A DNA stretch of 64,000 nt, taken from the NCBI GenBank assembly GCA_964547985.1, contig CAZJPV010000005.1:7755-71754 (forward strand), read 5' to 3'. The position numbers and the translations under genes were made by a program. Shown here piece by piece: positions 2,278 through 45,616 of this stretch; positions within the stretch are counted from its first letter, which is position 1, and the number at the start of each line of letters is the position of its first letter. Source of the DNA: an uncultured Syntrophaceae bacterium. Its GTDB lineage: Bacteria; Desulfobacterota; Syntrophia; Syntrophales; UBA2192. The notes beneath the pieces were generated by a model. That model saw only the letters and a program-made list of their open reading frames with translations, had not been told where the DNA came from and searched no databases.

Positions 2278-4290
2278 TTACTCGCTCGCCGGCACCCCGG
2301 TGAACCCCCAATCCGCCATCTGGGGCTCCGCGACGGGCTCCTTCGGTATCGGGTAGCTGTCCTTGAGGAATTTTCCGACGCCCCGTACCTTGAGTTTCGT
2401 GAAGAAGGGCGCATTGTCGTCATGGCAGTCCTTGCATCCTTCGGGCTTTCCTTTCTGCCCCAGGGTCTTCTTGACCGACACGGGCAGGTTGCCGTGGTAG
2501 ATGGGATGCATCACAGCCTGTGTCAATGCCGGTGCAGGGCGGCCTTGGACCTTGTCCTTCTTGAGTTCATAGAGCTGGTCGGCCACGAAAACGACGTTCC
2601 GGAATCCCATGTCGGTCAGGGCCCGGATCATGAGGCGGATGTCCTCCTCGGTGGCCACTGTCGTCTGTTTTACCTTCTCGCCGGCGTGGGTGACGACCTC
2701 GACCGTCGTCAGCTTCCGGCCCGCGGCGGCGTTGCGCACATGCTCCAGGCCGATGGGCCTCACGATGCCCTCGGAGAGCATCTCGCCGAACCACTGCCTG
2801 ACTTTGGGTATGGACGGGACGTAACGCTCGCCGTTCCCTTTGACGCGCTCGTGGCGGTCCGTCCAGGGCTTCCAGAGCTCCGATGCGAACTGTTTCAGTT
2901 CATCCGGGCGGGTGACCAGGGCGGCCTTGTCCGTCGAGTACCAGGCGGGCCGTCCCGCGCTGTGGTCCACGAGATAGACGCTGCGGGTCTTCCGCTCCGA
3001 GGCGTGGCAGGCCGTGCAGTGAAGCAGGTAGAAATGGAAGGTTGCCTTGTGGAAGAGCGAGCGGTGGATATTGTCGGGGTTCTTGACCTCTTTCGGCATG
3101 CCGGGCCGGGTCGGCCTGTACTGCCCCTCGAGGTGGCAGGCCGCGCAGGTTTTCATCCCCGCGCCGTCGAGATCGTTGCGGGCCGTGGCCGTGGGTGACC
3201 AGCCCTTGCCGATGTGGTGCCGGAGACGCTCGGCCTGTGTCCTGCCGGCCAGGGTGTGGCAGTCGGTGCAGCGAAGTCCCGCCTTGAGATGGAGGTCTCC
3301 CGCGGGCAGGTAGAGGGTGCCCGACTTGCGGCTGTCCATATCGCGGTGGCACTGCGTGCAGCTGTCCGTCTCGACGGATTTGCTGATCAGGGTGTTTCCC
3401 CTGAACTTCCCCTCAAGCGTGAAGATCTTCCGGTCCTCCCAGGCGTACCGGACGGCCGGCCGGGTCGAGAAATTCCACGACCCTCTGTCGTAGCCTTCGA
3501 CGTCGGGACCGGCATCGGGATTATGGAAGGTGAAGACAGCACCCCGGACCTCGCCCAGCCCCGCGCCCGCGGTGGCGGCCCAGCGGTAGTTGCGGAGGCT
3601 CAGCTGACGGTTTCTCCGGTCGAGGCGATAGCCTCTCAGGTGGCACATGAGGCAGTCGCCCTCGATGACCCCGCTCGCCCGAAAATAGCTTCGTCCGTCG
3701 GGGGTGTAGCGGGAGGAGTAATCCCCGTCCAGGGGCAGGGGCCTCAGAGGCTCGCCATGGGTAAGGGTTTTCGAGAGATCACGCCTGCCGTCGGCTTTTC
3801 TGCCGAATTCCATGGGACCCCCGCCGGGATGGGTCCAGCCGGGTGCTGTGGAAATAACCTGGCCCTTGCTGCCGATCTTGCCGCCGGCGGTGATCCAGTC
3901 GTAGGTGGAAAGACCCATGTTGCGGGCAACGGCGTTTTTCTTCGCGGCGACCCGCCCGGTGAAGGTGCCCGGATCCCCTCCCTTGCCGAAGCTGCCGGGG
4001 GAGAGGATCCAGGGGCGTTTCGGGTCGTAGCCGCCTTTCATCTCGTCGAAACCCTGCTGGAAGTGCGTGCCCGACGTGATGGTCATGTATCCGTGGCAGG
4101 TCCCGCAGGTCTTGCGGGGTGAATAGGGGTCGGTGCTGTTTCTCGTGGGGGTGATGCGCTGCCCGTGCTCGTTCTTGAGCCAGATGTCCTCGTGCTTCCA
4201 GTCCGGCGCTCGCGCGGCATCGAGCGAAAGCGGCACGATCAGGACCAGAAGAAGGAGGATACAGGCTTTCTTGAACCGGCTCATGAGCAT
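2278..4290 (-). CDS. Secreted heptaheme c-type cytochrome with large non-heme regions (about 670 aa)
   Basis: Seven CxxCH motifs (CGTCH, CLMCH, CTQCH, CTDCH, CAACH, CTACH, CKDCH). Signal peptide MLMSRFKKACILLLLVLIVPLSLDAARA. The track start at 4341 is a TTG just after a terminator hairpin, so ATG 4290 (or 4284) is preferred. Confidence 0.85.
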   Translation of the reverse strand: MLMSRFKKACILLLLVLIVPLSLDAARAPDWKHEDIWLKNEHGQRITPTRNSTDPYSPRKTCGTCHGYMTITSGTHFQQGFDEMKGGYDPKRPWILSPGSFGKGGDPGTFTGRVAAKKNAVARNMGLSTYDWITAGGKIGSKGQVISTAPGWTHPGGGPMEFGRKADGRRDLSKTLTHGEPLRPLPLDGDYSSRYTPDGRSYFRASGVIEGDCLMCHLRGYRLDRRNRQLSLRNYRWAATAGAGLGEVRGAVFTFHNPDAGPDVEGYDRGSWNFSTRPAVRYAWEDRKIFTLEGKFRGNTLISKSVETDSCTQCHRDMDSRKSGTLYLPAGDLHLKAGLRCTDCHTLAGRTQAERLRHHIGKGWSPTATARNDLDGAGMKTCAACHLEGQYRPTRPGMPKEVKNPDNIHRSLFHKATFHFYLLHCTACHASERKTRSVYLVDHSAGRPAWYSTDKAALVTRPDELKQFASELWKPWTDRHERVKGNGERYVPSIPKVRQWFGEMLSEGIVRPIGLEHVRNAAAGRKLTTVEVVTHAGEKVKQTTVATEEDIRLMIRALTDMGFRNVVFVADQLYELKKDKVQGRPAPALTQAVMHPIYHGNLPVSVKKTLGQKGKPEGCKDCHDDNAPFFTKLKVRGVGKFLKDSYPIPKEPVAEPQMADWGFTGVPASE

Positions 4291-4351
4291 TCCCGAAGTT
4301 GAGTGCAACAGGACGAAAATATTTCGGTTCAGATAAGGCAAGGCATCTTGT

Positions 4352-4406: not shown

Positions 4407-5291
4407 TCAGGGCTCTGAGGGTGCGTTGGGGTCCGCCAGCCACTCCATGGAGGAACCGTCATAGACCTTTACGTTTTTGTAGCCCAGCAGGTCGGCGAGG
4501 GCCAGCCACCAGGTCGTGCAGATCTTGCCGGTGTCGCAGTAGGTGATGATCTCGCGGTTGAGATCGGCGCCCGCGATGGGCTTGGCGATGGCCTCGATCT
4601 CCGCCTTGCTCTTGTAGGTGCCGTCCGCGTTGTAGAGCAGGCCGGGCGGCAGGTTCACGGCACCCTTGATGCGGCCCGTCCTGGGCACGAAGTCGAGCTT
4701 CTTCTCGCCCTTGTAGAACTCCGGTGCCCGGACATCGACGAGCAGGGCCTTGCCCAGGGCACCCGTGACGTAGGCCTTGTTCACGAGGAACTGCTTGTTG
4801 AACTTGCCCCGGTAGGTCTTTGCCCTGGGCTTCACGGCGTCCTTCGAGAGGGCCTTCTTTTCCGCGGCCCATTTTTCAATGCCTCCGCTCAGGACGGCCA
4901 CGTTCTCCACGCCGGCGTACCTCAGGGTCCAGGCGACCCGTGTCGCGTCCGTGCGCAACGGGATGGTCTCGTTCTTGGAGACCACGACGACGGCCGTGGT
5001 GGGCTCGATGCCCGCCGACGACAGGATGTCACGCAGGTCGTCATCGGACGGCAGCTCGTTGAGAAGAACACCCTTCTTGATGCCCCAGACGCCGTAAAAG
5101 ACGTTGATGGCCCCGGGGATGTGGCCGGCGCTGTACTCTTCCACCTTCCGGACATCGAGGACCGTAACCTTGGAGAGATTGGCCTGGAGCCACTCCGTGG
5201 TGACGATCGGTTCTCCCGCGAATGCCGCCGCCGGCAGCAGCAGAACAACGGCCAGCAGACCTACCATGACTTTCATTTTCGCTGTAACCAT
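4407..5291 (-). CDS. Periplasmic two-domain rhodanese / thiosulfate-sulfurtransferase-like protein
   Basis: 294 aa with signal peptide (VGLLAVVLLLPAAAFA). The N-terminal domain is inactive and the C-terminal domain carries an active-site Cys loop (ITYCDTGKICT). It ends in VYDGSSMEW. AGGAGG lies 6 nt before ATG 5291. Confidence 0.85.
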   Translation of the reverse strand: MVTAKMKVMVGLLAVVLLLPAAAFAGEPIVTTEWLQANLSKVTVLDVRKVEEYSAGHIPGAINVFYGVWGIKKGVLLNELPSDDDLRDILSSAGIEPTTAVVVVSKNETIPLRTDATRVAWTLRYAGVENVAVLSGGIEKWAAEKKALSKDAVKPRAKTYRGKFNKQFLVNKAYVTGALGKALLVDVRAPEFYKGEKKLDFVPRTGRIKGAVNLPPGLLYNADGTYKSKAEIEAIAKPIAGADLNREIITYCDTGKICTTWWLALADLLGYKNVKVYDGSSMEWLADPNAPSEP

Positions 5292-5307: not shown

Positions 5308-6560
5308 TTATTTGTTGATGGGTATGGGCTTTGGTTTATTGATCAGCTCCAGGTTCACCCTTGAGCTGTCCTTCAGGAGGGTTTCCATGGTGAGGAATCC
5401 CTTCCTGTCTTCGTGACAGTTATCGCAGTTGCGGGTCCTTTCCGTCCGCTTCCGGATGTTGTGGATCGGGGCGTCCCAGTAGTTCGGGAGGGCGTCGAAG
5501 TTTGCCTGCTGGATTCCCGCGGGCTTGAAGGTGTCGCGCACCGTGGGGATGATGCGCAGGGTCGTGATGGTCCTGTGATTTCTCGGGCTCGTCCCCAGGA
5601 AGAAACCCGGCTTCGCCTCGGAGTGCCCGTTGTGGCAGTTGTAGCACTGCCGGTATTCGCCGGCCGAGTGGCAGCTGAAGCAGCTGGCCGTCTGACTGTG
5701 CTTGAGGTGGGCCACGCGGGCCGTCAGTTTCGCCTCCCTGCCGCGCTCGTGGCAGTCGGTACAGCGCGGCCGGTCGCGGACCTCCTCCTTGAGAGCGTAA
5801 TCCCTGCCGTCACCGTGGAGCTCGTCCATGGTGTGGCAGTCCATGCACAGCATGCCCTTCTGGTAGTGGACGTCGGCGTTTCCACCGTATTCGCCCGTGT
5901 ACTCGGGGTAGACGCGTCCGCCGTGACAGTAAGCGCAGGTCTTGCCCTCGTCTTTTCGCACGAACTTGTGTTTGTTGATGAGACCCAGGCTCACCCCGGC
6001 GATAGCCGGTGACTTCACGTGGCAGTCTCCGCAGGAGGCATGACAGGCGTTGCAGGACTTTCGGAAGACCGTATCGTCGAAGATTTTTGCCTCTTCGACG
6101 GACATCCTTTTGATCACGCGGTTGCGCTGGCCGATGGTCGTATAATGAAGGGATTTTTTATAGTTCGCGGCGACCTCCTCGTGGCACTCACCGCAGACGG
6201 CCAGGTCACTGGAGGGGCGCTTCACCATCCCCTGGTGGGCGGCGTCCTTGTCATCCGCCTTTTCGTTTCCCTTGTGACAGTACAGGCAGCCCTTCTCGAA
6301 GTGATGGTCCGTTTCGACGAGTTTATGTCGACGAGGAACGTCAGGTGGAAGGTCTCCGCCTTGACCGGCGGAGGCGCCCCTGCTCACCCCTCTGCCTCGC
6401 CCACGGGCATGACGAAGGGCTTGCAGGTCTTCTTGAGCATGGACTCGTCGGTGTGACAGGTCACGCAGCTGCTGGGGTTATTGGCGGTGCTCGACACGGC
6501 CACGAACAGGCACCAGGACAGGAGACCAGCGATGACCGGAATGATGAGCCGTGCCTTCAT
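5308..6560 (-). CDS. Undecaheme c-type cytochrome, interrupted: signal peptide plus heme 1 (6387-6560), in-frame TGA at 6384-6386, then a frame change before heme 2; candidate selenoprotein, recoded gene or pseudogene
   Basis: ORF 5308..6387 has 10 CxxCH motifs but no signal peptide. An unlisted 58-codon ORF from ATG 6560 (MKARLIIPVIAGLLSWCLFVAVSS...CVTCH...GEAEG) supplies the signal peptide and an 11th heme motif, and stops at TGA. See findings for frame and GC3 details. Confidence 0.7.
6354..6373 (-). promoter_or_regulatory. SECIS-like hairpin (or frameshift-stimulating stem-loop) 17 nt downstream of the in-frame TGA
   Basis: On the minus strand: CTCCGCC GGTCAA GGCGGAG. This is a perfect 7-bp stem with a 6-nt loop starting GGUC. 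Confidence 0.45.
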
Positions 6561-7242: not shown

Positions 7243-8094
7243 TTATGCCTTTGCCCAGCATTCGATCGCCTTCGGCGCCAGGGCGCGCCCCTGTTCATAG
7301 CCTTCCTGAAGGGCGCGACGGTTCTGGCTGAACCTTGAGACGCGGAAGTTCTGAGGCGGGCATATTTCAATGACTGACACGCCCTCCGGCGGTTTTCGGA
7401 TGAGGGCTACCGATTCATTGTAACGCTGTGCCCGTTTTGCCATCGTCTCCTGCAGCATGGGGCAGCGCCTTATATACCAGCGCATGATGAGTTCAAAGGG
7501 GCCGTTTCGCTTCAGGTAATCTCGGTGCTGCGAACGGATAACCATTATGCGGCGGGCGCCGCGCCGGATGGCCTCACTGACGGGGAGGGAGTCGGCCACG
7601 CCCCCGTCCGTCATCGGACGACCGTCGACGAAGGGGTAACCCCTGTAAAAGAGCGGTATGGAGCTGGAAGCCTTCAGGACGTGCTCGAGATCGCCGGCGC
7701 TCGTAAGCTTGTAGATTGCTTCTCCCGTCTGCACGTCGGTCAGAACCGCTATAAAGGGTTTCCCCCTGGAATAAATCGTTGCAAGGTCAAGACGGATTTC
7801 CCTGATGGTGGTCTCCCAGAGCCAGTCGAGGTCCATGAGGTGGCCGCCGCGGAGAAACCTGGGTATGCTGAGAAACTGCGGTTGCAGGGAGTAGTCCAGG
7901 TAGATCTTCCTGTTTCGCCCGATCATTTCGGCGAGATACGCCGCAAGGTTGGAGGCGCCCGATGAGACGCCGAAGAAAAGGTCGAAAGGGTTGAATCGCG
8001 CTTCCAGAAAGCCGTCCAGAAGCCCCGTGGAGAAGACCCCCCTGAGCGCGCCCCCTTCGACTACAAGAGCTGTGTTGGGTGATGGATGACTCAA
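7243..8094 (-). CDS. Patatin-like phospholipase
   Basis: Oxyanion GGALRG, nucleophile elbow GVSSG and catalytic MTDGG (Asp-Gly-Gly) motifs occur in canonical order. Confidence 0.9.
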   Translation of the reverse strand: MSHPSPNTALVVEGGALRGVFSTGLLDGFLEARFNPFDLFFGVSSGASNLAAYLAEMIGRNRKIYLDYSLQPQFLSIPRFLRGGHLMDLDWLWETTIREIRLDLATIYSRGKPFIAVLTDVQTGEAIYKLTSAGDLEHVLKASSSIPLFYRGYPFVDGRPMTDGGVADSLPVSEAIRRGARRIMVIRSQHRDYLKRNGPFELIMRWYIRRCPMLQETMAKRAQRYNESVALIRKPPEGVSVIEICPPQNFRVSRFSQNRRALQEGYEQGRALAPKAIECWAKA

Positions 8095-15496: not shown

Positions 15497-15574
15497 AGCT
15501 GCTTGTGAATGTTATTGGTAGATAGGCAGGCTGACTGAGTACGTCTGATGGAAACCAGGGAAAGGAGGTATTCA

Positions 15575-16009
15575 ATGTTTCATAGAGGAAGCAACAACAT
15601 TTTATTCGCATTAGCTGTCATTGCCGGGGTTCTTCTCATGAATGCCTGTGCGGCAATGAACCAGCAGACAAACAAAGGAGATACCACCATGGAAGCTGTC
15701 CGAATTTCGCCGCAGGATACTTATCAGCAGGTGACATCAGGAAGAGCTATATTAGTCTGTTCCTATGATAAGAAAACATGCAGCAAGATGATGTTAGAGG
15801 GTGCCATTACGCGTGAAGAGTTTCAGTCGAAACTGCCCAGTATTTCCAAGAGCCAGCCAATTATTTTTTATTGTGCCTGACACGAGGAACACACCTCTGC
15901 CGGTCAGGCAGTGAAATATACGAAAATGGGATATACCAATGTTAAGGCGCTGCACGGCGGCGTTGAGGCTTGGAAAAAGGCAGGGTATAAACTTGTAGGC
16001 GATAAATAA
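15575..16009 (+). CDS. Single-domain rhodanese lipoprotein with an in-frame TGA (15878-15880) in the catalytic loop; candidate selenoprotein
   Basis: AGGAGG lies 7 nt before ATG 15575, and the lipobox is VLLMNAC. The track ORF stops at IIFYCA-TGA. The same frame continues HEEHTSAGQAVKYTKMGYTNVKALHGGVEAWKKAGYKLVGDK-TAA (16007-16009). That stretch is the conserved C-terminal part of a rhodanese domain, and a terminator follows. Confidence 0.7.
15897..15911 (+). promoter_or_regulatory. SECIS-like hairpin downstream of the rhodanese TGA
   Basis: CTGCC GGTCA GGCAG: perfect 5-bp stem with loop GGUCA. The loop starts 21 nt after the TGA. Confidence 0.45.
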
Positions 16010-16050
16010 GAAGCGACCTGGTTGCTAACCGTTGGGTCAGGAAAGAAAAA

Positions 16051-16084
16051 AGGCAGAGCCGTTTCTGGCTCTGCCTTTCTGTTC
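16051..16084. terminator. Bidirectional rho-independent terminator between the convergent rhodanese and cspA genes
   Basis: 10-bp stem aggcagagcc/ggctctgcct (16051-16060 / 16067-16076). An A-run lies upstream and TTCTGTT downstream. Confidence 0.75.
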
Positions 16085-16152
16085 AAATTAAAGAGGCACA
16101 TCAGAGCATGAAAAAAACAGATTGAAGTACCTCTTCCTTACCGCTCATGCGC

Positions 16153-16353
16153 TTATAAAAGTTTCACGTTCTCGGCTGCCGGGCCTTTCTGACCCTGCAC
16201 AACGTCGAAGCTGACACGCTGGCCTTCACTAAGCGTCTTGAAACCAGCGGCTTGAATAGAAGTGTGATGAACGAACAGATCACCACCGTCATCTTTTTCG
16301 ATGAACCCGAAGCCTTTCTTGTCGTTGAACCATTTTACTTTGCCTTCTGACAT
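16153..16353 (-). CDS. cspA: Cold-shock protein (CspA family)
   Basis: [33 protein letters not shown] carries the RNP1 (KGFGFI) and RNP2 (VFVHH-like) motifs. The AGGAGG spacing fits the second ATG (16353). Confidence 0.93.
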
Positions 16354-16851
16354 CGCTTGCATCCTCCTTTCATAGAATTCTATTTAAGTCGGATTTCCAC
16401 AATGACAGAAAGAAAAAGGCCACCGAGACTCTAAAGAGCATGATGGCCAGCCTTTGCACTTCAAAATGTCTTAATCCATACTTATTTAGTGCTGGAAATT
16501 TACGATGTCTCTTATCGAAAGTCAAGGATTATTCTTTAATTATTTCAATAACTTTTATTATGAGATTCAGGAGCTTTTGCAGGGGAAGGGGGGAGGCACA
16601 CGGCGGCAAATCCACTATTGGGGCAGACCATAGTCCGAAAGTTGATAGATAGATGGAGTTTGGCGATCACAGGAAATCGTTGAGGTTCCCGTGAGTGCAA
16701 AATGACCCCGCTGCTTCTACATAAATAAAAATATATTATCTTGACTTCATGCAATTTGAGAGTAGCATATATATAAATCAAAGTAATTGACACTGGATCT
16801 GCAGCTTATCTCTCCTTTCCCCTTATAGGGGTCATAATTTGGTAATTGAAA

Positions 16852-21351: not shown

Positions 21352-22206
21352 ATGAAAGAGAAACTAATGACGGCAATCGAAGCGGCGCGTTTCGTTGAAA
21401 ACGGGAGTCACCTGGGTGTCGGTGCCGGTATGGCGATGAACCCCATGCCCGTCGTGAGGGAGGTCATTAAAAGGGATGTCAGGGGACTTACACTGACCCC
21501 CGTCGTCACCGGGGGCTATGTGGCGGATCTTCTCATTGGTGCCGGATGCGTTGAGACGGTCCAGTTTCCCCAGATTGTCATGGATGAGTTCGGTCTTGCG
21601 CCCAAGTTCAGAAAAAAGGCGGAAAAGGGCGAGCTCAAGTACCTGGAAACCATGTGAGCCTCCCTCCTCCTCGGGCTCCAGGCTGGGGCCTACAATCTCC
21701 CCTTCATTCCCGTCCTTGGCCTTCTGGGGACGGACTACATGAAAATACGGCCTGACCTCAAGACAATGAAAGACCCCTATTCAGGCCATGAATACGTTGT
21801 GATTCCCCCGATTATTCCCGACGTGGCCATTATCCATGCCACAAAGGGAGACCGCTTCGGGGGTGTCACGACCTTCAGTATGCGAAATGACTTGCTCCTG
21901 GCCCGGGCCGCAAAGAAAACCATTGCCGTCATCGAGGAACTTCTCGAGCCGGATGAGGTCCTGCCGGCACGTAACGAGGTCTATATTGCCCCCGTTCATG
22001 TCGATGCCGTCGTGCTTGCACCGCGGGGCGCGCATCCCACGGGTTGTCCCGGAAAATACGACGTTGACGGGGCCCACATCAAAGCGTACATGGCGGCGGC
22101 AAAGGATGACAAGTCTTTCAGGCAATACCTGGACACCTATATCTACGGGCCGAAGGACCATAACGATTATCTCAAGAAAGTGGGGTTGGGAGATTATGGA
22201 AAATAA
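21352..22206 (+). CDS. Family-I CoA-transferase subunit A (glutaconate-CoA-transferase GctA-like) with an in-frame TGA at 21655-21657
   Basis: Track ORFs 21325..21657 and 21739..22206 are in the same frame, separated only by one TGA. Read-through gives ...GELKYLETM-x-ASLLLGLQAGAYNLPFIPVLGLLGTDYMKIRPDLK.... This stretch is contiguous with the recalled GctA pattern (LGLPFLPV; DAVVLAPxGAHP later). Confidence 0.7.
21673..21691 (+). promoter_or_regulatory. Hairpin downstream of the CoA-transferase TGA (weaker SECIS candidate)
   Basis: GGGCUCC AGGCU GGGGCCU: 7 pairs including two G-U, with loop AGGCU starting 22 nt after the TGA. Confidence 0.3.
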
Positions 22207-35204: not shown

Positions 35205-36518
35205 CTACTCGGGGATTTTCCCGGTGAGGAGCATCCCGATCTGCCCGTCGAGCCTTGCAGCGATGGCCTTGATCTCCTCCGTGTCGGTCGATAGGAATCT
35301 CAGCAAATCGAAGCGGTTAAGACGTTCGGCTATCTGGATGAAGACCGGGCAGATGCCGAGGATCATGGCCGAGGCCACCCTCTCCGTCCATGCCTTTCCG
35401 GAGAAAAGGGGGGCAATCCCGCCACCGAAGAGTTGATAGAGGCGGGTCTCGATACCCGGTGCCGACGGGTAGTCCTTCTCATCGATGGAAGCCCCTGCGG
35501 CGGCGAGGGCCTCGATCGTGTTCAGTGCCTCCCGGAGCGGACGGTCCTCGCGAAGACCGTATCCCGCGGCCAGGGGATCGAGCCCGAGTTCCAGACACCT
35601 CTTCAGGAGGGGAAGGGCATCCTCGGACTTGCGTGAAAGAGAGATCCATCCGCCGTGATCCATCAGGAGGAACCCGTCTTTTTCCTTCTCCCCTCCCTGT
35701 CTTCGGAAGGCCGCGTAGGTCATGCAGGGGCAGGGGCAGTGGTAGCAGGCCCGGTTTCGCCCGAGTTTCCCACGGAGCGCCCCGGCAGACTCGCCGCCGT
35801 CGGCGATTCTCTTCAAAACGGGGACAAACCCCTCGGTTTTCATGGCTCCCGAGTCTCGCAACAGCTTTTCCGTCGTCTTGGACAGAGCCGGGTGATCCTC
35901 GCGGTGGGGCAGTCCCCCGATGCCGTTGAACAGGACGGCCTTGAGGTTCTTTGCCGCCATCCGGGCGGCGAGTCCAACCCTGTCGAGACTCCCGTGACTG
36001 CCGATGGAGGCCGATGCGAAGGGCGAGCTTCGATCCGCCGCCGGCCCCGTGACGATGGAGGCGCGGAATCCGGGTGCACTTCGCCTCAAGGACTGAACAA
36101 TTTCAGGTACCGGACGATCGGAGGTCTCTTGGAGCGGGACGATGGCGATGGAGCCTCGCCCGATATGGATAGCGCAGGGCTGTTCTGTTGCACCGCGGAT
36201 GACAAGAAAATCCAAACCGGCACATTTCATCTCCGGACCAGTCCGGAGCATGAAGGGCACGTGGCAGAGATGATCGTACAGGGGGGACCTGAACGTGGCG
36301 ACGAGAAGCGATGACGCCGGGGCGAAACTTCCCGTCAGTGGCCCCGTCCCAAAAACGAGGGAGTCGCTTTCATACTGGGTAAGGAGCCAGGCGCTCATGG
36401 ACGCCCCAACGAGATGTTTCCGGATCGCCTCTTCCTCGAAGTCGACCGTGTAGGACGACCGCAGGGTCAGGTCAACGACGCCGATTTTGCCGTTATAAAA
36501 GAAGGGGAAGAGTTTCAT
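35205..36518 (-). CDS. Short, divergent aldehyde:ferredoxin-oxidoreductase-family paralog (437 aa)
   Basis: AFOR_N-like N-terminus (GKIGVVDLT..., FGTGPLTGSFAPAS, CAGLDFLVIRG). A compact Cys cluster ACYHCPCPC. The C-terminal domains are much shorter than in the 611-aa AOR at 45617. Confidence 0.6.
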   Translation of the reverse strand: MKLFPFFYNGKIGVVDLTLRSSYTVDFEEEAIRKHLVGASMSAWLLTQYESDSLVFGTGPLTGSFAPASSLLVATFRSPLYDHLCHVPFMLRTGPEMKCAGLDFLVIRGATEQPCAIHIGRGSIAIVPLQETSDRPVPEIVQSLRRSAPGFRASIVTGPAADRSSPFASASIGSHGSLDRVGLAARMAAKNLKAVLFNGIGGLPHREDHPALSKTTEKLLRDSGAMKTEGFVPVLKRIADGGESAGALRGKLGRNRACYHCPCPCMTYAAFRRQGGEKEKDGFLLMDHGGWISLSRKSEDALPLLKRCLELGLDPLAAGYGLREDRPLREALNTIEALAAAGASIDEKDYPSAPGIETRLYQLFGGGIAPLFSGKAWTERVASAMILGICPVFIQIAERLNRFDLLRFLSTDTEEIKAIAARLDGQIGMLLTGKIPE

Positions 36519-37831
36519 GCGTTTATCTCAACCGGAGCCGTTTTTTGCCACCGGAAACGGATCTTCGCCGCGCTGTAAGGGCATCGGTCCACGCAGCGCA
36601 GGCACATGATGCACTCCATCATGGGGATCTTCGGTGAGACGCCTTCACGGAGCTGGCTCGCGTCGATGATGCCCACGGGGCAGACCTCGGCGCACTGGAT
36701 GCAGGAGAACTTCTTGCACTTGCGCGCCCCGATAACGATCTTGAGGAGCCTCAGCAGGCTGGCTATGCCGAGGGTCGCCCCGACAGGGCAGAGGTAACGG
36801 CACCAGGACCTGCGCTCGGCGATCTCCGTTGCCGCCAGGGCCGGGACAATGGCCAGCTCGGCGCTTTGCATGAAGGACTGAACCCCGTAGGAGCGGCACA
36901 GTGTCCCGATAGGACAGACGGTGCAGAAGGCCTGAAATCCAAGGACGGCGCTTCCACCCACGGCACCACCCAGGATGCCGTACTTGGCCATGCGGCTCTT
37001 CAGGAAATTCGGCCAGCCCAGCTTCTTCGGGGTGATCTTGTCCACCAGGTCCAGCACGAAGCCGAAGGGGCATACCCAGCCGCAGAAAACCCTCCCGAAA
37101 AGAACCGTCAGGATGAGAAGGGCAAGCGCCGACGATGCGCCCACAAGGATGAGCGTCCCCGACGATGCGATGTTCTGCAGTGTCCCCGTGGGGCAGGCGA
37201 GCTCCACCGTCCCCGCCCTGAAGTAACAGAAGGTCCCCACGACGAGAATGACCAGAAAGAGAAAGGACAGAGCCTGTACACCCCACCGGGCCGCCTTGAT
37301 CCAGCGCAGGGCCTTGCCACGCGTGTAGGTTAGGGCATTTTCCGGGCAGTGCTTCACGCACAGCGGGTCGCCCTCGCAGAGGTCGCACTTGTGGATAACC
37401 TGGTTCGTAGGGTCGCGGATCGGCGCGGCCTCGGGGCAGGCCATGGTGCACAAACCGCAGTCGACGCAGAACAGGTCGTCAATCCTCACGATGCCGTCGT
37501 CGCCCTTCTCGATGGCTCGCGTGGGACAGGCCTCGAGGCACAGGGGCCTGCGGCAGTGCTGGCAGAGGACGGCGAAGTTTTTTCCGAGCTTTTCGTCGGT
37601 GAGGACCTTGACGCTTGCCTGTGCGGGGGCCACCCTGGAGACGTTCCGCGTCGAGCAGATCATCTCGCAGGTCCCGCAGCCTGTGCACTTCGCGGGGTCG
37701 AAGAGAATGTACCGGTTCCGCCGCGGCATGAAGAAGTCGGAAAACTTCTTTTTCTCCGGTACGCGGGGTCGGAGGTCCTCGAGTTTCAAGCCACTTTGCG
37801 GCTGGGTATCGGGCTTTCTTGACGCTTCCAT
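36515..37831 (-). CDS. Fusion protein: DmsB-like 4x[4Fe-4S] ferredoxin domain plus NapH/MauN-like membrane polyferredoxin
   Basis: N-terminal CTGCGTCEMIC, CQHCRRPLCLEACP, CVDCGLCTMACP and CDLCEGDPLCVKHCP. Then TM helices carrying CGWVCPFG and CRYLCPVG (NapH signatures). C-terminal CIQCAEVCP and CIMCLRCVDRCP. Confidence 0.75.
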   Translation of the reverse strand: MEASRKPDTQPQSGLKLEDLRPRVPEKKKFSDFFMPRRNRYILFDPAKCTGCGTCEMICSTRNVSRVAPAQASVKVLTDEKLGKNFAVLCQHCRRPLCLEACPTRAIEKGDDGIVRIDDLFCVDCGLCTMACPEAAPIRDPTNQVIHKCDLCEGDPLCVKHCPENALTYTRGKALRWIKAARWGVQALSFLFLVILVVGTFCYFRAGTVELACPTGTLQNIASSGTLILVGASSALALLILTVLFGRVFCGWVCPFGFVLDLVDKITPKKLGWPNFLKSRMAKYGILGGAVGGSAVLGFQAFCTVCPIGTLCRSYGVQSFMQSAELAIVPALAATEIAERRSWCRYLCPVGATLGIASLLRLLKIVIGARKCKKFSCIQCAEVCPVGIIDASQLREGVSPKIPMMECIMCLRCVDRCPYSAAKIRFRWQKTAPVEINA

Positions 37832-37980
37832 TCTAATGTTCTGTTTCGTCTATTGGGTCTATTTCGTCCTGTGAAGACCCTTCCTCCCCTGCTTTCCCTC
37901 TCCCCTGGCGGGAGCGGATTGAGGTGAGGGGGTCTTTTAAATCTTCCGGTCCCTGTACCCTGGTCCCGGGACCCTGCTTC

Positions 37981-38442
37981 TTATGCGTTGCGGAGCAGGT
38001 AGATCTCCCGCCTGCACGACGGGCACGTTTCGAGCGCCGTCAGGACGTTTGCCGGCTCTGTCTGGAGCCTTCCGAAGACAAATTCCTCCACGGGCACGGC
38101 CACAAAGAACCGGCCGCAGGCCTCGCAGCGCTTGGCGTTTTCGACCACGTTTTCCCCGATGGCCGCCTCGCGGAGCTTGCGGATCAAGTCCCGGCAGCTC
38201 ACCCCCTGGGGGCAGACGTCGGTGCCGCTGTTGCACTCCGTGCAGTACCAGATGTTTTTGTCCTCGACGATGTTTTCGCCCGTGAGCGTCTTCTTGATAA
38301 TGCCCCGGGGCGACATCTCGATGCCGAAATTCACATACATCTCCGCCATGGGACAGGCGGCGACACAGCGGCCGCACTCGACACAGCCTAGGGCCCCTGA
38401 AACTTGCTTCGCTTCCTCGATCTTATCGTGCCGTCGCTTCAT
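37981..38442 (-). CDS. Small Fe-S protein, HdrC-like, with a C-terminal Cys-pair ribbon
   Basis: CVECGRCVAACP and CTECNSGTDVCP, followed by CEACG...CPSC. Confidence 0.6.
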   Translation of the reverse strand: MKRRHDKIEEAKQVSGALGCVECGRCVAACPMAEMYVNFGIEMSPRGIIKKTLTGENIVEDKNIWYCTECNSGTDVCPQGVSCRDLIRKLREAAIGENVVENAKRCEACGRFFVAVPVEEFVFGRLQTEPANVLTALETCPSCRREIYLLRNA

Positions 38443-40474
38443 AGCGCTCCTTTTCCACGCTTACGGCGCAGACCTTGTATTCGGGAGTCTTGCAGGCCGG
38501 GTCGAGCACCGGGTTCGTGAGCCTGTTGGCCCTCGCCTCGGTGAAGTGGAAGGGGGCGAAGATGCTCCCCTTTGCCACGCGATCGGTGATCTTGGCCGTC
38601 GTCACGATGCTCCCCCGCCGGGAGCTGACTCGAATCCTCTCCCCCTCGCGGATGCCGAGCGCGGCGGCATCGGTGGGGTGGATCTCCACGTAGGCCCACT
38701 CGATCTCGCGGTTGAGAAAGGGCGAACGCCGCGACATGGTCCCCGTGTGGTAATGGGCGAAGACGCGCCCCGTGTTGAGATAGTAAGGGTACTCCGAGTC
38801 GGGCTTTTCCGCAGGCGGCCTGTAGTCGGGGATGACGAACCGGCCCAGCCCGCGGGTGAACTTCTCGCCGTGCAGAAAGCGCGTCCCCGGGTGGTTTTCA
38901 TCGGGGCAGGGCCACTGCAGTCCTACGCGCTCCAGGCGGTCGAAGCTCACCCCGGCGTACGCCGGGACGAGATGGGCATATTCCGACATCACATCGGCGG
39001 GCGAAGGGTAGTCGAAGGCGAGTCCCAGGGCCTTCCCCAGGAGGCAGAGGATCTCGAAGTCGCCCTTCGCGGCTCCGGGCGGGTCGATGGCCTTGTGAAG
39101 GAGCTGGAAGCGCCTCTCCGTGTTTGTGTAAGTCCCGGTCTTTTCGGCAAAGCAGGCTCCCGGTAGGACCAGGTGCGCGAATCTCGCCGTTTCCGTCAGG
39201 AAGATGTCCTGGACGACCAGGAAATCGAGCCTCTGAAGGGCCTCCATGACGTGGTTCACGTCGGGGTCGCTCAAGCAGGGGTTTTCGGCCATGATGTACA
39301 GGGCCCGGATGTCCTTTCCCGCGGTATTGATGAGCTCCGTCACGGTGAGCCCCGGTTTGTCAGAGAGATCTGTTTTCCAGGCCTTCTGAAACTTCTCCCT
39401 TACGGCGGGGTCGGACACGCCCTGGTAGCCGGGGTAGAGGTCCGGCAGGGCCCCCATGTCGCAGGCGCCCTGAACGTTGTTCTGTCCGCGAAGCGGGTAG
39501 ATTCCCGAGAAATGCTTTCCCACATGGCCGCAAAGCATAGCCAGATCGCAGATGGCGATCACGTTGGCCGCCCCGCAGGCGTGCTGGGTAATGCCCATGC
39601 AGTAGACGATGGCAGCGTTTTTAGCCTTCGCGTAGGTCTCGGCCACCGCGCGGATGACCGATTCGTCGATGCCTGTTTCCTTCGCGGCCTTCTCCACGGG
39701 CCATGCCTCGAGGAAGGTCTTTAGGTTCTCGAAGTTTTCCGTCCGCTTCTCGATGAAGCCGACATTGTGGAGCCCTTTGTCGCTGATGTGGCGCATCATT
39801 CCCGCCAGAAGCGGGATATCGGTTCCAGGGTTCAGCCTCAGCAGCCTGTGGGCGTTTCGGGCCACCGCTGTTTCCCGGGGGTCGATAACGAACATCTTCG
39901 CTCCCCGGTCGAGGGCCTTGTAGACCTCGCCCATGAGAACGGGGTGAGTCTCGGCGGCGTTGGAGCCTACAAAAACGATGCAGTCGGCGCCGGCAAGATC
40001 AGAGATGGAGTTGGTCATGGCGCCGCTGCCCAGCGTCTGGAGCATGCCCACCGTGGTTGCCGCGTGACAGAGCCTGGCGCAGTGGTCCACGTTGTTGGTC
40101 TTGAAGGCCGCCCGGATGAGCTTCTGGAAGAGGTAGTTCTCCTCGTTGGTGCACTTGGCCGAGGAGAGCCCGCCCACGCTGTCAGGGCCGTATTCCCCGG
40201 CCGTCTCACTAAGCTTCTGCGCCGCAAGGTCGATGGCCTCCTCCCAGGAGATGGCCTCGAAACGGTCACCCTTGCGCAGAAGCGGCGCCGTCAAGCGCTC
40301 GGGGTGATGGACGAACTCGTGGGCGAACCACCCCTTCACGCAAAGGGATCCCCGGTTCACGGGGTTCTCCCGGTCGGGGTAGGTGGCCGTGGCGCGGCCC
40401 TCCTCCACCTTGAGGATGAGCCCGCATCCCGTGCCGCAGTAAGGGCAGATGGTTCGGATAAACTCAGGTTTCAT
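38423..40474 (-). CDS. fdhA: Formate-dehydrogenase-type Mo/W-bis-PGD catalytic subunit, Cys variant
   Basis: N-terminal [4Fe-4S] motif CPYCGTGC...C. Active-site stretch NNVDHCARLCHAATTVG...GSGAMTNS has Cys where FdhF has Sec. 683 aa, uninterrupted. Confidence 0.88.
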   Translation of the reverse strand: MKPEFIRTICPYCGTGCGLILKVEEGRATATYPDRENPVNRGSLCVKGWFAHEFVHHPERLTAPLLRKGDRFEAISWEEAIDLAAQKLSETAGEYGPDSVGGLSSAKCTNEENYLFQKLIRAAFKTNNVDHCARLCHAATTVGMLQTLGSGAMTNSISDLAGADCIVFVGSNAAETHPVLMGEVYKALDRGAKMFVIDPRETAVARNAHRLLRLNPGTDIPLLAGMMRHISDKGLHNVGFIEKRTENFENLKTFLEAWPVEKAAKETGIDESVIRAVAETYAKAKNAAIVYCMGITQHACGAANVIAICDLAMLCGHVGKHFSGIYPLRGQNNVQGACDMGALPDLYPGYQGVSDPAVREKFQKAWKTDLSDKPGLTVTELINTAGKDIRALYIMAENPCLSDPDVNHVMEALQRLDFLVVQDIFLTETARFAHLVLPGACFAEKTGTYTNTERRFQLLHKAIDPPGAAKGDFEILCLLGKALGLAFDYPSPADVMSEYAHLVPAYAGVSFDRLERVGLQWPCPDENHPGTRFLHGEKFTRGLGRFVIPDYRPPAEKPDSEYPYYLNTGRVFAHYHTGTMSRRSPFLNREIEWAYVEIHPTDAAALGIREGERIRVSSRRGSIVTTAKITDRVAKGSIFAPFHFTEARANRLTNPVLDPACKTPEYKVCAVSVEKERYEATAR

Positions 40475-41316
40475 GGCTTCTTTTCCGTGCTGTCGACCCA
40501 GTCGGGCATGTCCTGCCCGGGGCGGGGCTCCTTGATGAAGTCAGAGAGGACGGGGGATTTACGATCCGCGTCGATCCCTGCCTCATAGTTGTAATCCCTC
40601 TTCAGGGCTTCCCGCATCGATAGCTGGAGCGTCATGAGGGGGATGCCTACCGGGCAGGCCTCCTGACAGGCCCCGCAGGCCACACAGGTATCGGAGAGGT
40701 GAAAAGCCCGGATGAGATGGAAGGTGGTCATTTCTGCCGGGACGACGCCGCGCTCGACCCAGACTTCGTCCTCGAGCTTGCAGGGTACGCAGACGCAGAT
40801 GGGGCAGGAATTGCGGCAGCCGTAACACTTGATGCAGCGCCTGAGCTGTTCGGCCCACTTCTCCATGCGTGTGCGGGCATCGCCCTCCAGGTAGGACTTC
40901 ACCCGCTCGTCGGTCAGGGGATCCACGCCCTCCACGGCGCTCCCCGCGTCGAGCTTCTGAGGGTAGGGACGGTTGCAGAGGCATGCCTTCGCCTGGGCGG
41001 AGTCGCAGGCGTAGCCGAGGGTGAGGAGCCTCTCGCGGTCGACCTGGTTTCGCTTGACGAGCTCCACGACGGCCCTCTCGTCGCATCCCCGCATGACGAC
41101 AACCAGCCGCCAGGGCTGCGGCCTCTCCAGCAGGACCGCCCGGGCCATCTTGGCGAGCAGCCACTTGGGCTCGAGCACGAGCTTGTCGATCTCCGCCGGA
41201 GCCGTAAAGACGTGTGGCTGAATCACATCCCAGTAGCCCTTTTTGAGTGCTAGAACGCCGTCGGCTTGCTTCCTCTCGAGGAGCTCTCTCGCTCTCTGTC
41301 TTACCTGTTCCAGCAT
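40471..41316 (-). CDS. Fe-S cluster protein (AsrA/sulfhydrogenase-beta-like Cys pattern)
   Basis: CIKCYGCRNSCPICVCVPC and CVACGACQEACP. The stop overlaps the fdhA start (4 nt). Confidence 0.6.
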   Translation of the reverse strand: MLEQVRQRARELLERKQADGVLALKKGYWDVIQPHVFTAPAEIDKLVLEPKWLLAKMARAVLLERPQPWRLVVVMRGCDERAVVELVKRNQVDRERLLTLGYACDSAQAKACLCNRPYPQKLDAGSAVEGVDPLTDERVKSYLEGDARTRMEKWAEQLRRCIKCYGCRNSCPICVCVPCKLEDEVWVERGVVPAEMTTFHLIRAFHLSDTCVACGACQEACPVGIPLMTLQLSMREALKRDYNYEAGIDADRKSPVLSDFIKEPRPGQDMPDWVDSTEKKP

Positions 41317-41357
41317 CTTTTTTTTCTTTTCACCGGCCGCCCGTCACTTATCACGAG

Positions 41358-41786
41358 TCACTGTTTTACGGGCACCCATGCCCCCATCGAGGGCAGGCCC
41401 TCGAGCTCCCTGTAAAAGCCCAAAATCGTTTCCACGTACTGGTGCCACTCGTGGGTCGTGCCGAAGCCCAGCAGCAGCCGGTTCCCGCCGATGCCCGTCG
41501 TGTCGAGGAGCGTCTTGAGAAGCTCCAGACGCTTGAGGGCAGGGTGGTTGGCGTCGTTGAAGCGGCACCCGCCGACGTGGCAGCCCAGGACGGCCACCCC
41601 CGTTACCCCACTGGCGAAGGCCCGTATCACCAGGTCGGGTTCGACGTAACCCGCGCACTCCACCGGGATCACCCGGAAAGATACAGGCAGCTCGATACGC
41701 TGTCGCCCGGCGGCGTCTGCCCCGAAGAGGCCGCACCAGCGGCATGCGAAGACGAGGATTTTCACGTTGTTTGAATCGGCGGACAT
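41358..41786 (-). CDS. mvhD: MvhD-like (methyl-viologen-reducing hydrogenase delta subunit family) protein
   Basis: ILVFACRWCGLFGADAAG ... VIPVECAGYVEPDLVIRAF ... GVAVLGCHVGGC matches the FlpD/MvhD pattern. Confidence 0.85.
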   Translation of the reverse strand: MSADSNNVKILVFACRWCGLFGADAAGRQRIELPVSFRVIPVECAGYVEPDLVIRAFASGVTGVAVLGCHVGGCRFNDANHPALKRLELLKTLLDTTGIGGNRLLLGFGTTHEWHQYVETILGFYRELEGLPSMGAWVPVKQ

Positions 41787-41787
41787 G

Positions 41788-43494
41788 TCAGCGTACCTCC
41801 CGGAAGGCCCGCCGTATCATCTGGCAGACGGCCCGGTCATTGAGCTCGGGCATCTGCATGGCCCCGTTCGGGCAGACGGAGACGCAATTGCCGCAAGCCT
41901 TGCAGCGGATCTTGATGACACGGCTCACGGAACGATTTCCCATGCGTTGGAGCCTGCAGGCCCCGTAAGGGCATACGGCCATACAGTTGCCGCATCCCGT
42001 GCAGGCATCTGAGTTTACGCTTGCGTGGCCAACCTTCTGGTCCGGCATGCGGCTCATCGCGAGGGCCGAGACCATTTTCTTCCCGAGGAAGGAGGCCGCC
42101 TTCATGGCCGCCGCTTCGCCCTGGGCGATGGCCTGGTCCGACGAGACGGGCCAGCGGGCCGTCCCGCAGATGAAAATACCGTCATTTAGCGTCTCCACGG
42201 GATGGTTGGGGTAGACCTCTGCGAAGAACCCGTATTTGTCCACGGGGATCTCGAGCATGCGGGCGAGCGCCGCGCTCTCCGGGTCGGCAATGAGGGGCGT
42301 GCTGAGGACGACAAGGTCCGTTTCAATGGTCCGGGTCACTCCCGAGATGGCGTCGAAGACCTGGACCTCGCCGACCTGTCCTTCACCGAGCACCCCGGGC
42401 GGCCGCGCGGCATCGAAACGGATGAACTGGACGCCCTTCTCAAGTGCCTTCCGATAATACGCCTCCAGAATGCTGCCCGGCGTCATGATGTCGCGGTGCA
42501 GGACATAGGCCTTCGCGCCCGGAATCTCGTCGATGATCCGCATGGCGTTCTTGAGGGACAGGGGACAGCAGATCGTGGAACAGTAGGGCCGATCAATATT
42601 TCGCGCGCCAACGCACTGGATGAAGACGGCCGTCCGGCAGGCGGGTTTCCCCGTCGAGAACTGCCTCTCCATCTCCATCTGGGTGATCACGTTTTTGAGC
42701 TTCCCGTAACCATGCAGCCCCTGGGGGAAAAGGATTCGTGCCCCCGTTGCCAGAACGATGGCGCCGACGCGCAGACCGGTTTTTCCTTCGGGACCTGCCA
42801 GGGTGACCTTGAAATCGCCGGCCTGGCCTTTGACGGAAACAACCCTTGTCTTCCCGTAGAAGCTGATATGGTGGTTTCTGCTGACCTCTTCGAGCCGCAG
42901 ACCGATCTTCTCAGAGCCGGATTCTCCGCCGGGATAGGCCTGCGATATGATGTTGAGAAGTCCGCCGGGAGCTGATCCCCTCTCGACGAGGTGGACCCGG
43001 AACCCGAGTCTGGCCAATCCGCAGGCGGCCGAGAGGCCGGCAGGCCCTGCGCCGATCACCAGGGTTTCCTGCTGCAGCCGGACGGTGATGTCTTTCGAAT
43101 CCTGCATGTTCTGAAGCAGCGCGAGCTCCATGTCGAGCTGGCTTGCGGCTTTACGGAAAGCGCCCTCCGGGTCCTTGCGGTGAATCCAGGCGCAACCTTC
43201 CCGCAGATCTACTGTGCGCACATGCCGGAGCTCGGCGCCTTTTTTTACGAGTCCAAGCCGGACGAATTCCATTCTGCCGTATGGGGAGCAGGCGCCGATA
43301 AGGACCTTGCCGATCCCGCGATCGTGAATGGCGGAAAGGGCCCGTTCAACGTCGGAAGCAAGGCATAGGGATTCCGTGATCGTTACGCCATCCACGGCAG
43401 GATCGGCATTGAACCTCTTCCGGATGGACTCCAGATCGATGACCTTACCGATCTCACCGAAGCAGTCGCAGAGAAAGACGGTGACTTTGGGCAT
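41788..43494 (-). CDS. hdrA: HdrA-like flavoprotein 2 (N-terminal Cys-rich domain, FAD domain, C-terminal 2x[4Fe-4S])
   Basis: VIGAGPAGLSAA, FIQCVGARN...YCSTICC, CTGCGNCMAVCP and CKACGNCVSVCP. Confidence 0.85.
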   Translation of the reverse strand: MPKVTVFLCDCFGEIGKVIDLESIRKRFNADPAVDGVTITESLCLASDVERALSAIHDRGIGKVLIGACSPYGRMEFVRLGLVKKGAELRHVRTVDLREGCAWIHRKDPEGAFRKAASQLDMELALLQNMQDSKDITVRLQQETLVIGAGPAGLSAACGLARLGFRVHLVERGSAPGGLLNIISQAYPGGESGSEKIGLRLEEVSRNHHISFYGKTRVVSVKGQAGDFKVTLAGPEGKTGLRVGAIVLATGARILFPQGLHGYGKLKNVITQMEMERQFSTGKPACRTAVFIQCVGARNIDRPYCSTICCPLSLKNAMRIIDEIPGAKAYVLHRDIMTPGSILEAYYRKALEKGVQFIRFDAARPPGVLGEGQVGEVQVFDAISGVTRTIETDLVVLSTPLIADPESAALARMLEIPVDKYGFFAEVYPNHPVETLNDGIFICGTARWPVSSDQAIAQGEAAAMKAASFLGKKMVSALAMSRMPDQKVGHASVNSDACTGCGNCMAVCPYGACRLQRMGNRSVSRVIKIRCKACGNCVSVCPNGAMQMPELNDRAVCQMIRRAFREVR

Positions 43495-43498
43495 TGCC

Positions 43499-44713
43499 TT
43501 ATTTCTTCCCTTCCATGATCGAACGGAGCGCGGCCGAGGAGGCGTGAACCGCCGACTCCGTCACATGCGCTGGTGTCATGATGTGGCCGTAGGACTCGAA
43601 TAAACGTGTGACTCGACCTTCCGTCGCCAGTGTGGGGACGGCGTAACCCCGGGGCAGGGCGGGGATGGTCGGCTGCAGATTGCCGTTGAGAATGACCATG
43701 TCGAACTTCCAGATCTCGCGTGTCTGTGTCAGGGTGTCCTCGAATTTCACGGCGATGCCGTCACTGCCGGGCAGGGGATAGATGAGAGAAGGCCGCCCCC
43801 GGACAGCCCGTACACCTTTTCCTTCGATAGCGCGGATTGCGTACCCGTAGTAATCCCGACCGACGGTACGAAGGTCCGTGTAGAGAATGACGCAGTCGAT
43901 GGCAGGGTTTCTGCGCCTGACCCACTGGGCCTGCTTGAGGGCATGCATGCAACAAACAGCCGAACAGTGGGGCAGGAACTTCAGGTCGCGGGCACCGGCG
44001 CACTGGATGAATGCGATATTCCGGGGCACGGCCTTGTTTGAGTGCCTGAGGATGGTTCCCCTGTTTTCGCCCGCCTCAGCCTTCCAGGCCTCGAATTCAA
44101 GCGAGGTCATGATGTCCGGGTGGGTCCCCCAACCATACTCCTTCAGGGGTTCGAGGCTCACCTCGGAGAATCCCGCAGACCATATGACTTCGTCAACCGG
44201 GACCTGGAACCGCGCTTCTTCTCGATCGAAGTCGATGGCCTTCGTGGGGCACACATCCGCGCAGGAGCGACAGTCTCCGCAGCGATCCCGGTCGATGATG
44301 TAGAACGGAGGATAAGCGTGCTCCCAGATCGGCCGGGCGGCCCCCCGCGGACAGGCGTCTTTGCAGCGGCCGCAAAAGATGCATAGCTCGGGGTCGATCA
44401 CTGGTGCTAATTTCAAGATGACGGCTTGGAAGACGTGATGGTTTTTTTCCAGTGATTCCACTCTTGCGAGCGTGTGAACAAAAATGGAGGGGTTTTCCTT
44501 GCAGCGGCGGATCTCCGCCCAGAGGGTGCAAAAAGCGCAGTGGTCCGTTGGATAGTACTTGTCAAGTCTTGCCACAATCCCTCCAAGGTCGAATCCGTTA
44601 TCGACGAGATGGACGTGTTGACCTGCAGCAGCTAAATCAAGGGCTGCCGAGATACCGGAGATACCGCCGCCCATGACGAGAATCGTTCTCTTTTTCGTTT
44701 CCGTTTTTTGCAT
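43499..44713 (-). CDS. hdrA: HdrA-like flavoprotein 1 (FAD domain with inserted ferredoxin domain)
   Basis: VMGGGISGISAALDLA, YPTDHCAFC, CIFCGRCKDACP, CGDCRSCADVCP and FIQCAGARD...HCSAVCC. Confidence 0.85.
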   Translation of the reverse strand: MQKTETKKRTILVMGGGISGISAALDLAAAGQHVHLVDNGFDLGGIVARLDKYYPTDHCAFCTLWAEIRRCKENPSIFVHTLARVESLEKNHHVFQAVILKLAPVIDPELCIFCGRCKDACPRGAARPIWEHAYPPFYIIDRDRCGDCRSCADVCPTKAIDFDREEARFQVPVDEVIWSAGFSEVSLEPLKEYGWGTHPDIMTSLEFEAWKAEAGENRGTILRHSNKAVPRNIAFIQCAGARDLKFLPHCSAVCCMHALKQAQWVRRRNPAIDCVILYTDLRTVGRDYYGYAIRAIEGKGVRAVRGRPSLIYPLPGSDGIAVKFEDTLTQTREIWKFDMVILNGNLQPTIPALPRGYAVPTLATEGRVTRLFESYGHIMTPAHVTESAVHASSAALRSIMEGKK

Positions 44714-44765
44714 ATCCTTAAATTTGGATCCGATACCCTGAACCTTTGACCCTGTCCCCTTTTCT

Positions 44766-45467: not shown

Positions 45468-45616
45468 GAGTGCAGGTATCCCCTGATCGTTCCAGGTTCC
45501 GTATCAACGACCCCTCTCCCCCTCGGTTACGGACCGATGTGAGCATACAAAAAGAACCCATAAAATGCAAGGGCGGGTGAAAAGAATCACCCGCCCCTAC
45601 ATAAAGCATCCAACGG

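Follow-up and report, generated by a model that had tools for sequence, protein, structure and literature searches.

The gene at 15575–16009 on the forward strand very likely encodes a single-domain rhodanese of 144 residues with a signal peptide, in which the UGA at codon 102 would be recoded to selenocysteine (Sec). Judged from sequence comparison, the TGA at 15878–15880 is almost certainly a selenocysteine codon and not a stop. A preliminary description of the window, the 64-kb stretch of DNA analyzed here, had proposed a rhodanese with a TGA read as Sec. This central claim is supported by conservation of the TGA, by the presence of Cys at the same column in TGA-free relatives, by a covarying hairpin downstream, and by the existence of catalogued selenoproteins with the same C-x-U motif. 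The gene is an unannotated addition to a selenoprotein family that has been predicted since 2005, not a new kind of selenoprotein.

The start of the gene is placed at the ATG at 15575, which is favored over an upstream ATG at 15548 because it is preceded by a Shine–Dalgarno sequence, AAGGAGG, read at 15562–15568 on the forward strand and separated from it by 6 nt. The conventional ORF (15575–15880) ends with SQPIIFYCA and then TGA, and reading on in frame adds 42 codons, HEEHTSAGQAVKYTKMGYTNVKALHGGVEAWKKAGYKLVGDK, up to the TAA at 16007–16009, as had been described. In translation, this TAA is the true end of the frame, and the full coding sequence comprises 144 codons, including the UGA as predicted Sec102, followed by the stop. 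The Pfam Rhodanese profile (PF00581) matches the read-through product with E = 2e-9 and 38.3 bits (cut-off 22.2), whereas a Pfam profile scan of the truncated 101-residue ORF gave no PF00581 match; the 42-residue tail alone matches at E = 4e-4. Two earlier claims are therefore sustained, namely that the domain would be truncated without read-through and that the tail is the C-terminal part of a rhodanese domain. The rhodanese homology spans residues 40–139 (15692–15991, forward strand), as delimited by NCBIfam and Pfam matches, an AlphaFold2 model, and Foldseek. The terminator reported after the gene was recovered by a terminator scan as a 14-bp, G+C-rich hairpin with T/A runs at 16047–16080, to which no strand is assigned: the scan score and a T run lie on the minus strand, and TTTCTGTT follows the stem on the plus strand. 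This hairpin sits between the rhodanese gene and a convergent cold-shock gene (16153–16362, minus strand) and could serve both.

Relatives were collected by scanning species-representative genomes, one genome per species, which yielded at least 192 genes, and 80 loci were read. The genomes come from many anaerobic phyla and belong to Syntrophales, Desulfobacterales, Geotalea toluenoxydans, Nitrospirota, Acidobacteriota, Rokubacteria, Planctomycetota, and Myxococcota, lineages that presumably use the standard genetic code. The preliminary description had proposed checking whether homologs carry Cys or Sec at the TGA column. Across 82 genes (the window gene, two metagenome loci, and 79 species-representative loci), the column holds TGA in 79, TGC in two (L072 and L082), and AGC in one (L070). 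Searching 1.8 billion cluster representatives with a profile returned 399 relatives at E ≤ 1e-10; among the 45 full-length, single-domain, motif-bearing representatives, 25 have Cys at this column, 11 have Ser, six have some other residue, and three have a false Trp. In TGA-free relatives, the column is variable (C, S, D, G, E, T). Downstream of the TGA, the frame closes after 37–46 codons in 73 of 76 TGA-bearing genes, and a GGxxAW-like motif follows in 72 of them. Over this stretch, differences per site amount to 0.30 at the first codon position, 0.33 at the second, and 0.57 at the third, and such a concentration of change at third positions is what a translated sequence shows.

Several relatives depart from this simple architecture. 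The post-TGA frame is broken in L085 and L087. In L076, it extends over 389 codons, by way of what appears to be a frameshifted tail. In L056 (from 2386) and L059 (from 3178), no stop occurs for 357 and 387 codons past the TGA, respectively, and the Sec-rhodanese looks as if it runs in frame into a patatin-like phospholipase domain, judging from a reading of its motifs (GGGxHGAFTWGVLDR…GTSAGA). The window contains a separate patatin gene at 7243–8094 on the minus strand.

The SECIS-like hairpin described after the TGA was borne out at 15897–15911 on the forward strand. Its stem is formed by CTGCC (15897–15901) and GGCAG (15907–15911), its loop by GGTCA (15902–15906; GGUCA in the RNA), and a 16-nt spacer separates it from the TGA. 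Taken alone, the hairpin does not stand out (z = −1.5, with 16 of 200 shuffles folding equally well), so its significance derives solely from comparison with relatives. In an ungapped alignment of the 76 TGA-bearing genes, the four inner pairs are retained in 96–100% of sequences; for the outermost pair, 69 of the 76 retain it. Two codon third positions form a pair that is maintained in all 76 genes, as U-A in 48, C-G in 22, U-G in four, A-U in one, and G-C in one. The covariation score of the hairpin is 0.237, compared with 0.148 in shuffled alignments, none of 500 of which reached the observed value, and at most 0.134 when the pairing partners were slid. In the middle of the stem, the pairing is in part dictated by Ala and Gly codons. 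The second base of the loop is an invariant G. In bacteria, SelB-dependent Sec insertion is marked by just such a covarying hairpin at a fixed position directly behind the UGA, which supports this mode of decoding. Three TGA-free relatives were also folded; L072 and L082 have no hairpin, and L070 retains one. The latter (3184–3243) encodes Ser (AGC) at the Sec column, yet carries the hairpin CAGCC-GGCCG-GGCUG at the SECIS position, which may reflect a recent loss of Sec.

The SECIS hairpins of Escherichia coli fdhF and Moorella thermoacetica fdhA have GGUC-type loops. The window element resembles such bacterial SECIS elements in lying within the coding region soon behind the UGA and in forming a hairpin whose apical loop is G-rich, here GGUCA. 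It differs in that its stem has only 5 bp (6–8 bp in some relatives) and no bulged U is evident. No SECIS family was returned by an Rfam scan of the window at gathering thresholds or by a permissive scan of 15800–16100, the latter giving only weak chance matches on the terminator hairpin; Rfam may simply hold no model for so short an element. In the decoding scheme proposed here, the hairpin 16 nt past the UGA, with its apical loop starting GG, would act as a bacterial SECIS element as the ribosome nears the UGA and would recruit SelB-GTP-Sec-tRNA(Sec). Sec would then be inserted at codon 102 instead of termination by release factor 2, and translation would end at the TAA at 16007.

The same evidence bears on other explanations of the TGA. 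The best surviving of these, which we still regard as improbable, holds that the UGA is read through without selenium, either by near-cognate decoding or by insertion of Cys through the Sec pathway under selenium limitation, giving Trp or Cys at position 102. The functional tolerance of Cys at the Sec column in many relatives fits this idea. However, it leaves the conserved SelB-type covarying hairpin unexplained, and the codon conserved across phyla is TGA, not TGC or TGT, which implies a benefit of Sec itself.

Considerably less probable still is that the TGA is a genuine stop, with the 101-residue product being a truncated protein and the 42 downstream codons a decaying remnant. The broken frames in L085 and L087 would fit such decay, as would the public gene calls: 18 close database homologs (P0001–P0018) are 100–117 residues long and end at the position of the TGA. 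Termination of homologs at this point had been named at the outset as an observation that would count against recoding, but as a test it is misleading; the database proteins do stop there, but in the DNA the frame continues. These proteins end at the TGA because gene callers stop at TGA. In 73 of 76 genes, drawn from different phyla, the downstream frame is open and its protein sequence conserved, which a pseudogene remnant would not show, and decay accounts neither for the third-position excess downstream nor for the covarying hairpin; it would also leave a truncated product with no recognizable domain. A sequencing error is excluded because the identical truncated product recurs on 23 contigs from the sequence collection.

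We give almost no credence to the proposal that TGA encodes a standard amino acid throughout the organism (genetic code 4 or 25), which would make the residue Trp or Gly. It draws on database homologs recorded with Trp at the Sec position, including P0007 and P0009–P0011 and further P0021, P0034, P0053, P0105, P0147, and P0153. However, the DNA of P0007 and P0010, where checked, carries TGA on short contigs, and the recorded proteins differ from the standard bacterial translation, which points to gene calls made with genetic code 4; we infer that the remaining Trp-bearing homologs are likewise code-4 calls on TGA. In addition, 12 of the 36 confident genes in the window end with TGA, so TGA is an ordinary stop in this host, and the related lineages are rich in selenoproteins (PMC1794560). 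Trp at the Sec column is a convenient flag for missed selenoproteins. Hardly any weight attaches, finally, to a split into a pair of small genes, one being the 101-residue ORF and the other encoding a 32-residue peptide from GTG 15911, since, although an in-frame GTG-initiated ORF exists at 15911–16009, no Shine–Dalgarno-like sequence was seen before 15911, a start there would interrupt the helix behind the rhodanese loop, and the segment HEEHTSAGQA between the TGA and 15911 is conserved as protein in the relatives.

With the TGA read as selenocysteine, the position of the residue within the active-site loop can be examined. The preliminary description counted Ser at +6 and Gly-Tyr at +17/+18 from the TGA and placed the TGA-encoded residue at the catalytic Cys. 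The arithmetic is right, and the spacing equals that from the catalytic Cys in PDB 6mxv; the placement itself must be revised, as the canonical position belongs to Cys100. This is the Cys that had been pointed out two residues upstream of the TGA (C-A-U), encoded by TGT at 15872–15874 on the forward strand. Of the 82 genes, 79 encode Cys at this codon (TGC or TGT), and the remaining three have TGA. In P0023, a relative with a loop of canonical length (CGSGMTS), the sole loop Cys aligns to Cys100, and Cys100 likewise aligns with the catalytic-loop Cys of 6mxv. An AlphaFold2 model built with X at the Sec position (pLDDT 93.9) shows a strand at 96–99 ending at Tyr99, a six-residue loop C100-A-U-H-E-E105, and a helix from His106. 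Because Cys100 is invariant, aligns with the single loop Cys of P0023, and is the first loop residue after the central strand, it is assigned the canonical catalytic position; in the model, Sec102 is predicted to be the third residue of the six-residue loop.

Foldseek searches with the model retrieved GlpE (1gmx), YgaP, 6mxv, and BH2092 at TM scores of 0.70–0.78. The protein shares with GlpE, PspE, and the YgaP rhodanese domain the same fold and a Cys in the first position of a six-residue loop after the central strand. Unlike them, it has a non-basic loop, C-A-U-H-E-E, with Thr or acidic residues where canonical loops have Arg, and it carries Sec and further conserved cysteines at 62 and 69. 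Against the NCBIfam GlpE model, whose cut-off is 102 bits, the window protein reaches only 25 bits. Cys62, in the motif LVCAY (codon 15758–15760), is near-invariant, being present in at least 90% of 51 aligned sequences, and might serve the C-x-U loop as a third redox partner. Conservation of Cys69 (codon 15779–15781) is limited to closer relatives.

The earlier statement that rhodaneses are among the reported bacterial selenoprotein families proved correct. Rhodanese selenoproteins of the C-x-U type are catalogued as "COG0607 form 2, CxU" (PMC9312934), a 2026 review credits them to Zhang and Gladyshev (2005), and the reviews mark them as predicted only. They are represented by one curated model, NCBIfam NF041203 ("rhodanese_LYCAU"). 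With its rhodanese/COG0607 domain and Sec in C-x-U, the window protein fits the subfamily as the reviews define it. It resembles NF041203-type proteins in its single domain, in the Y-C-A-U motif (F-Y-C-A-U at residues 98–102), in the placement of Sec two residues after a conserved Cys, in the existence of Cys homologs, and in its occurrence in anaerobic lineages of the Deltaproteobacteria type; it differs in carrying a signal peptide, which most members lack. NF041203 is also its best NCBIfam match (residues 40–139), with 63.8 bits when Cys stands for Sec and 56.9 bits with X, and eight other members of the clade score 52.5–69.2 bits. Membership of NF041203 proper was rejected, as these scores are about half of the 115-bit cut-off. 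The genes bearing the IIFYCAU motif are best classed as an uncurated sister clade outside NF041203, and it is because the clade lies outside the curated model that annotation pipelines truncate the gene.

Other rhodanese selenoproteins differ in how Sec is arranged. A rhodanese-related sulfurtransferase with a U-x-U motif has been reported in the Olavius algarvensis delta-1 symbiont (PMC1976440), in which a second Sec replaces the conserved Cys. The same pattern occurs in three relatives, L040 (3202–3210), L043 (492–500), and L053 (3184–3192), where the Cys and Sec codons are both TGA (FY-U-[GA]-U), whereas the window gene has Cys (TGT) first and is a C-x-U form. Rhodanese selenoprotein forms 1, 2, and 4 (UxxS, UxxG) are likewise rhodanese-domain proteins whose active-site loop contains Sec, but their motifs begin with U and contain no C-x-U; the window protein retains the Cys and has Sec in addition at +2. 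Our own reading of those motifs, on which the papers are silent, is that Sec would replace the catalytic Cys in forms 1, 2, and 4.

The N-terminus argues for export. A signal peptide is predicted from the sequence at approximately residues 1–26, MFHRGSNNILFALAVIAGVLLMNAC followed by A (15575–15652, forward strand). Among the TGA-bearing relatives, 15 of 76 have a comparable hydrophobic N-terminal extension, and 61 start at the domain. The protein had been called a lipoprotein, which is plausible. Lipoboxes follow the consensus [LVI][ASTVI][GAS]C. Several of the 15 extended relatives, more distant ones, have a canonical lipobox (LAAC, LTAC, ISSC) whose Cys aligns to Cys25 of the window protein (codon 15647–15649, forward strand), a possible lipid-attachment site; against this, the window region reads L-M-N-A-C25 with an atypical Asn at −2, and close homologs have Asp at −2 or no Cys at the aligned site. 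The rhodanese selenoprotein is probably exported and possibly lipid-anchored.

The chemistry suggested by the C-x-U loop is proposed with low confidence. The invariant Cys100 would occupy the classical persulfide-carrying position, with the selenol two residues later, and the Cys100/Sec102 pair might cycle through an intramolecular selenenylsulfide. The role might be that of a redox or sulfane-sulfur (or selenium) relay and not that of a classical thiosulfate:cyanide sulfurtransferase, since the loop lacks the usual basic residue. Gene context is uninformative on function because neighborhood clustering over 80 related loci found no recurrent gene neighbor. A tentative extension, which we hold to be rather doubtful as a whole, is that the IIFYCAU proteins form a distinct subfamily without a curated model, that the window protein belongs to a branch that is exported, being either periplasmic or lipid-anchored, and that its Cys100–Sec102 selenenylsulfide handles sulfane sulfur or selenium outside the cytoplasm. 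The exported-branch reading could tie in with double-rhodanese and multihaem cytochrome genes approximately 10 kb upstream. There, two double-rhodanese proteins (1442–2212 and 4410–5291) flank a 687-residue multihaem cytochrome (2281–4341), and a second multihaem cytochrome (5311–6387) adjoins this group, all on the minus strand. Below the respective cut-offs, the double-rhodanese at 1442–2212 weakly matches NF041203, that at 4410–5291 weakly matches ExtH, a rhodanese of selenite/tellurite operons, and the cytochrome at 5311–6387 weakly matches ExtN/ExtM.

The window was also surveyed for Sec machinery and redox genes. None of selA, selB, selC, and selD was found in its 64 kb by a Pfam and NCBIfam survey of approximately 40 ORFs together with a tRNA scan, which detected no tRNA in the window. 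In a redox cluster at 35205–48195 on the minus strand, a formate dehydrogenase alpha subunit is accompanied by polyferredoxins, a pair of HdrA-like genes, and a pair of aldehyde:ferredoxin oxidoreductase-like genes. The formate dehydrogenase subunit (38426–40474, minus strand; TIGR01591, 836 bits) is uninterrupted and is therefore not a Sec form.

A second Sec candidate lies in the same window, in a gene for a GctA/IpdA-like CoA-transferase alpha subunit (PF01144; 21343–22206, forward strand) with an in-frame TGA at 21655–21657. In alignment with glutaconate CoA-transferase 1poi, its read-through product matches over the whole length (E = 2.8e-30). The TGA column aligns to Glu105 of Mycobacterium tuberculosis IpdA and holds Cys in all seven full-length homologs examined; at the DNA level, it is TGA in 76 of 78 genes and TGT in two (77 metagenome loci plus the window; related loci L090–L169). 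An 8-bp hairpin (21673–21680 paired with 21684–21691, loop GGC, forward strand) begins 15 nt downstream of the UGA. The hairpin shows 93% pairing and G-C/A-U covariation, and none of 500 shuffles reached its score. The sequence CTCCAGGCTGG is invariant, including at synonymous sites, and the two Cys forms encode the same peptide with the hairpin absent. The family was not found in the table of the 2026 review, among the NCBIfam selenoprotein models, or in the main texts of deep-Sep and BSepDB, and literature searches returned nothing relevant. On this comparative evidence, the CoA-transferase alpha subunit may represent a new selenoprotein family, and, being apparently uncatalogued, it is likely a more valuable lead than the rhodanese. 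The presence of a second gene with a Sec signature in the window suggests that the host decodes Sec.

For the rhodanese family, these results bear on both annotation and chemistry. In the public protein sets examined, the gene is recorded as a "hypothetical protein" of 100–117 residues or with a false Trp, and the only dedicated curated model misses a clade that accounts for at least 192 genes in species-representative genomes. The C-x-U loop would be a design in which Sec accompanies the rhodanese catalytic Cys and does not replace it. If the exported subclade is real, it would place a selenol outside the cytoplasm. For the organism, the corrected annotation would add one more selenoprotein to its inventory.
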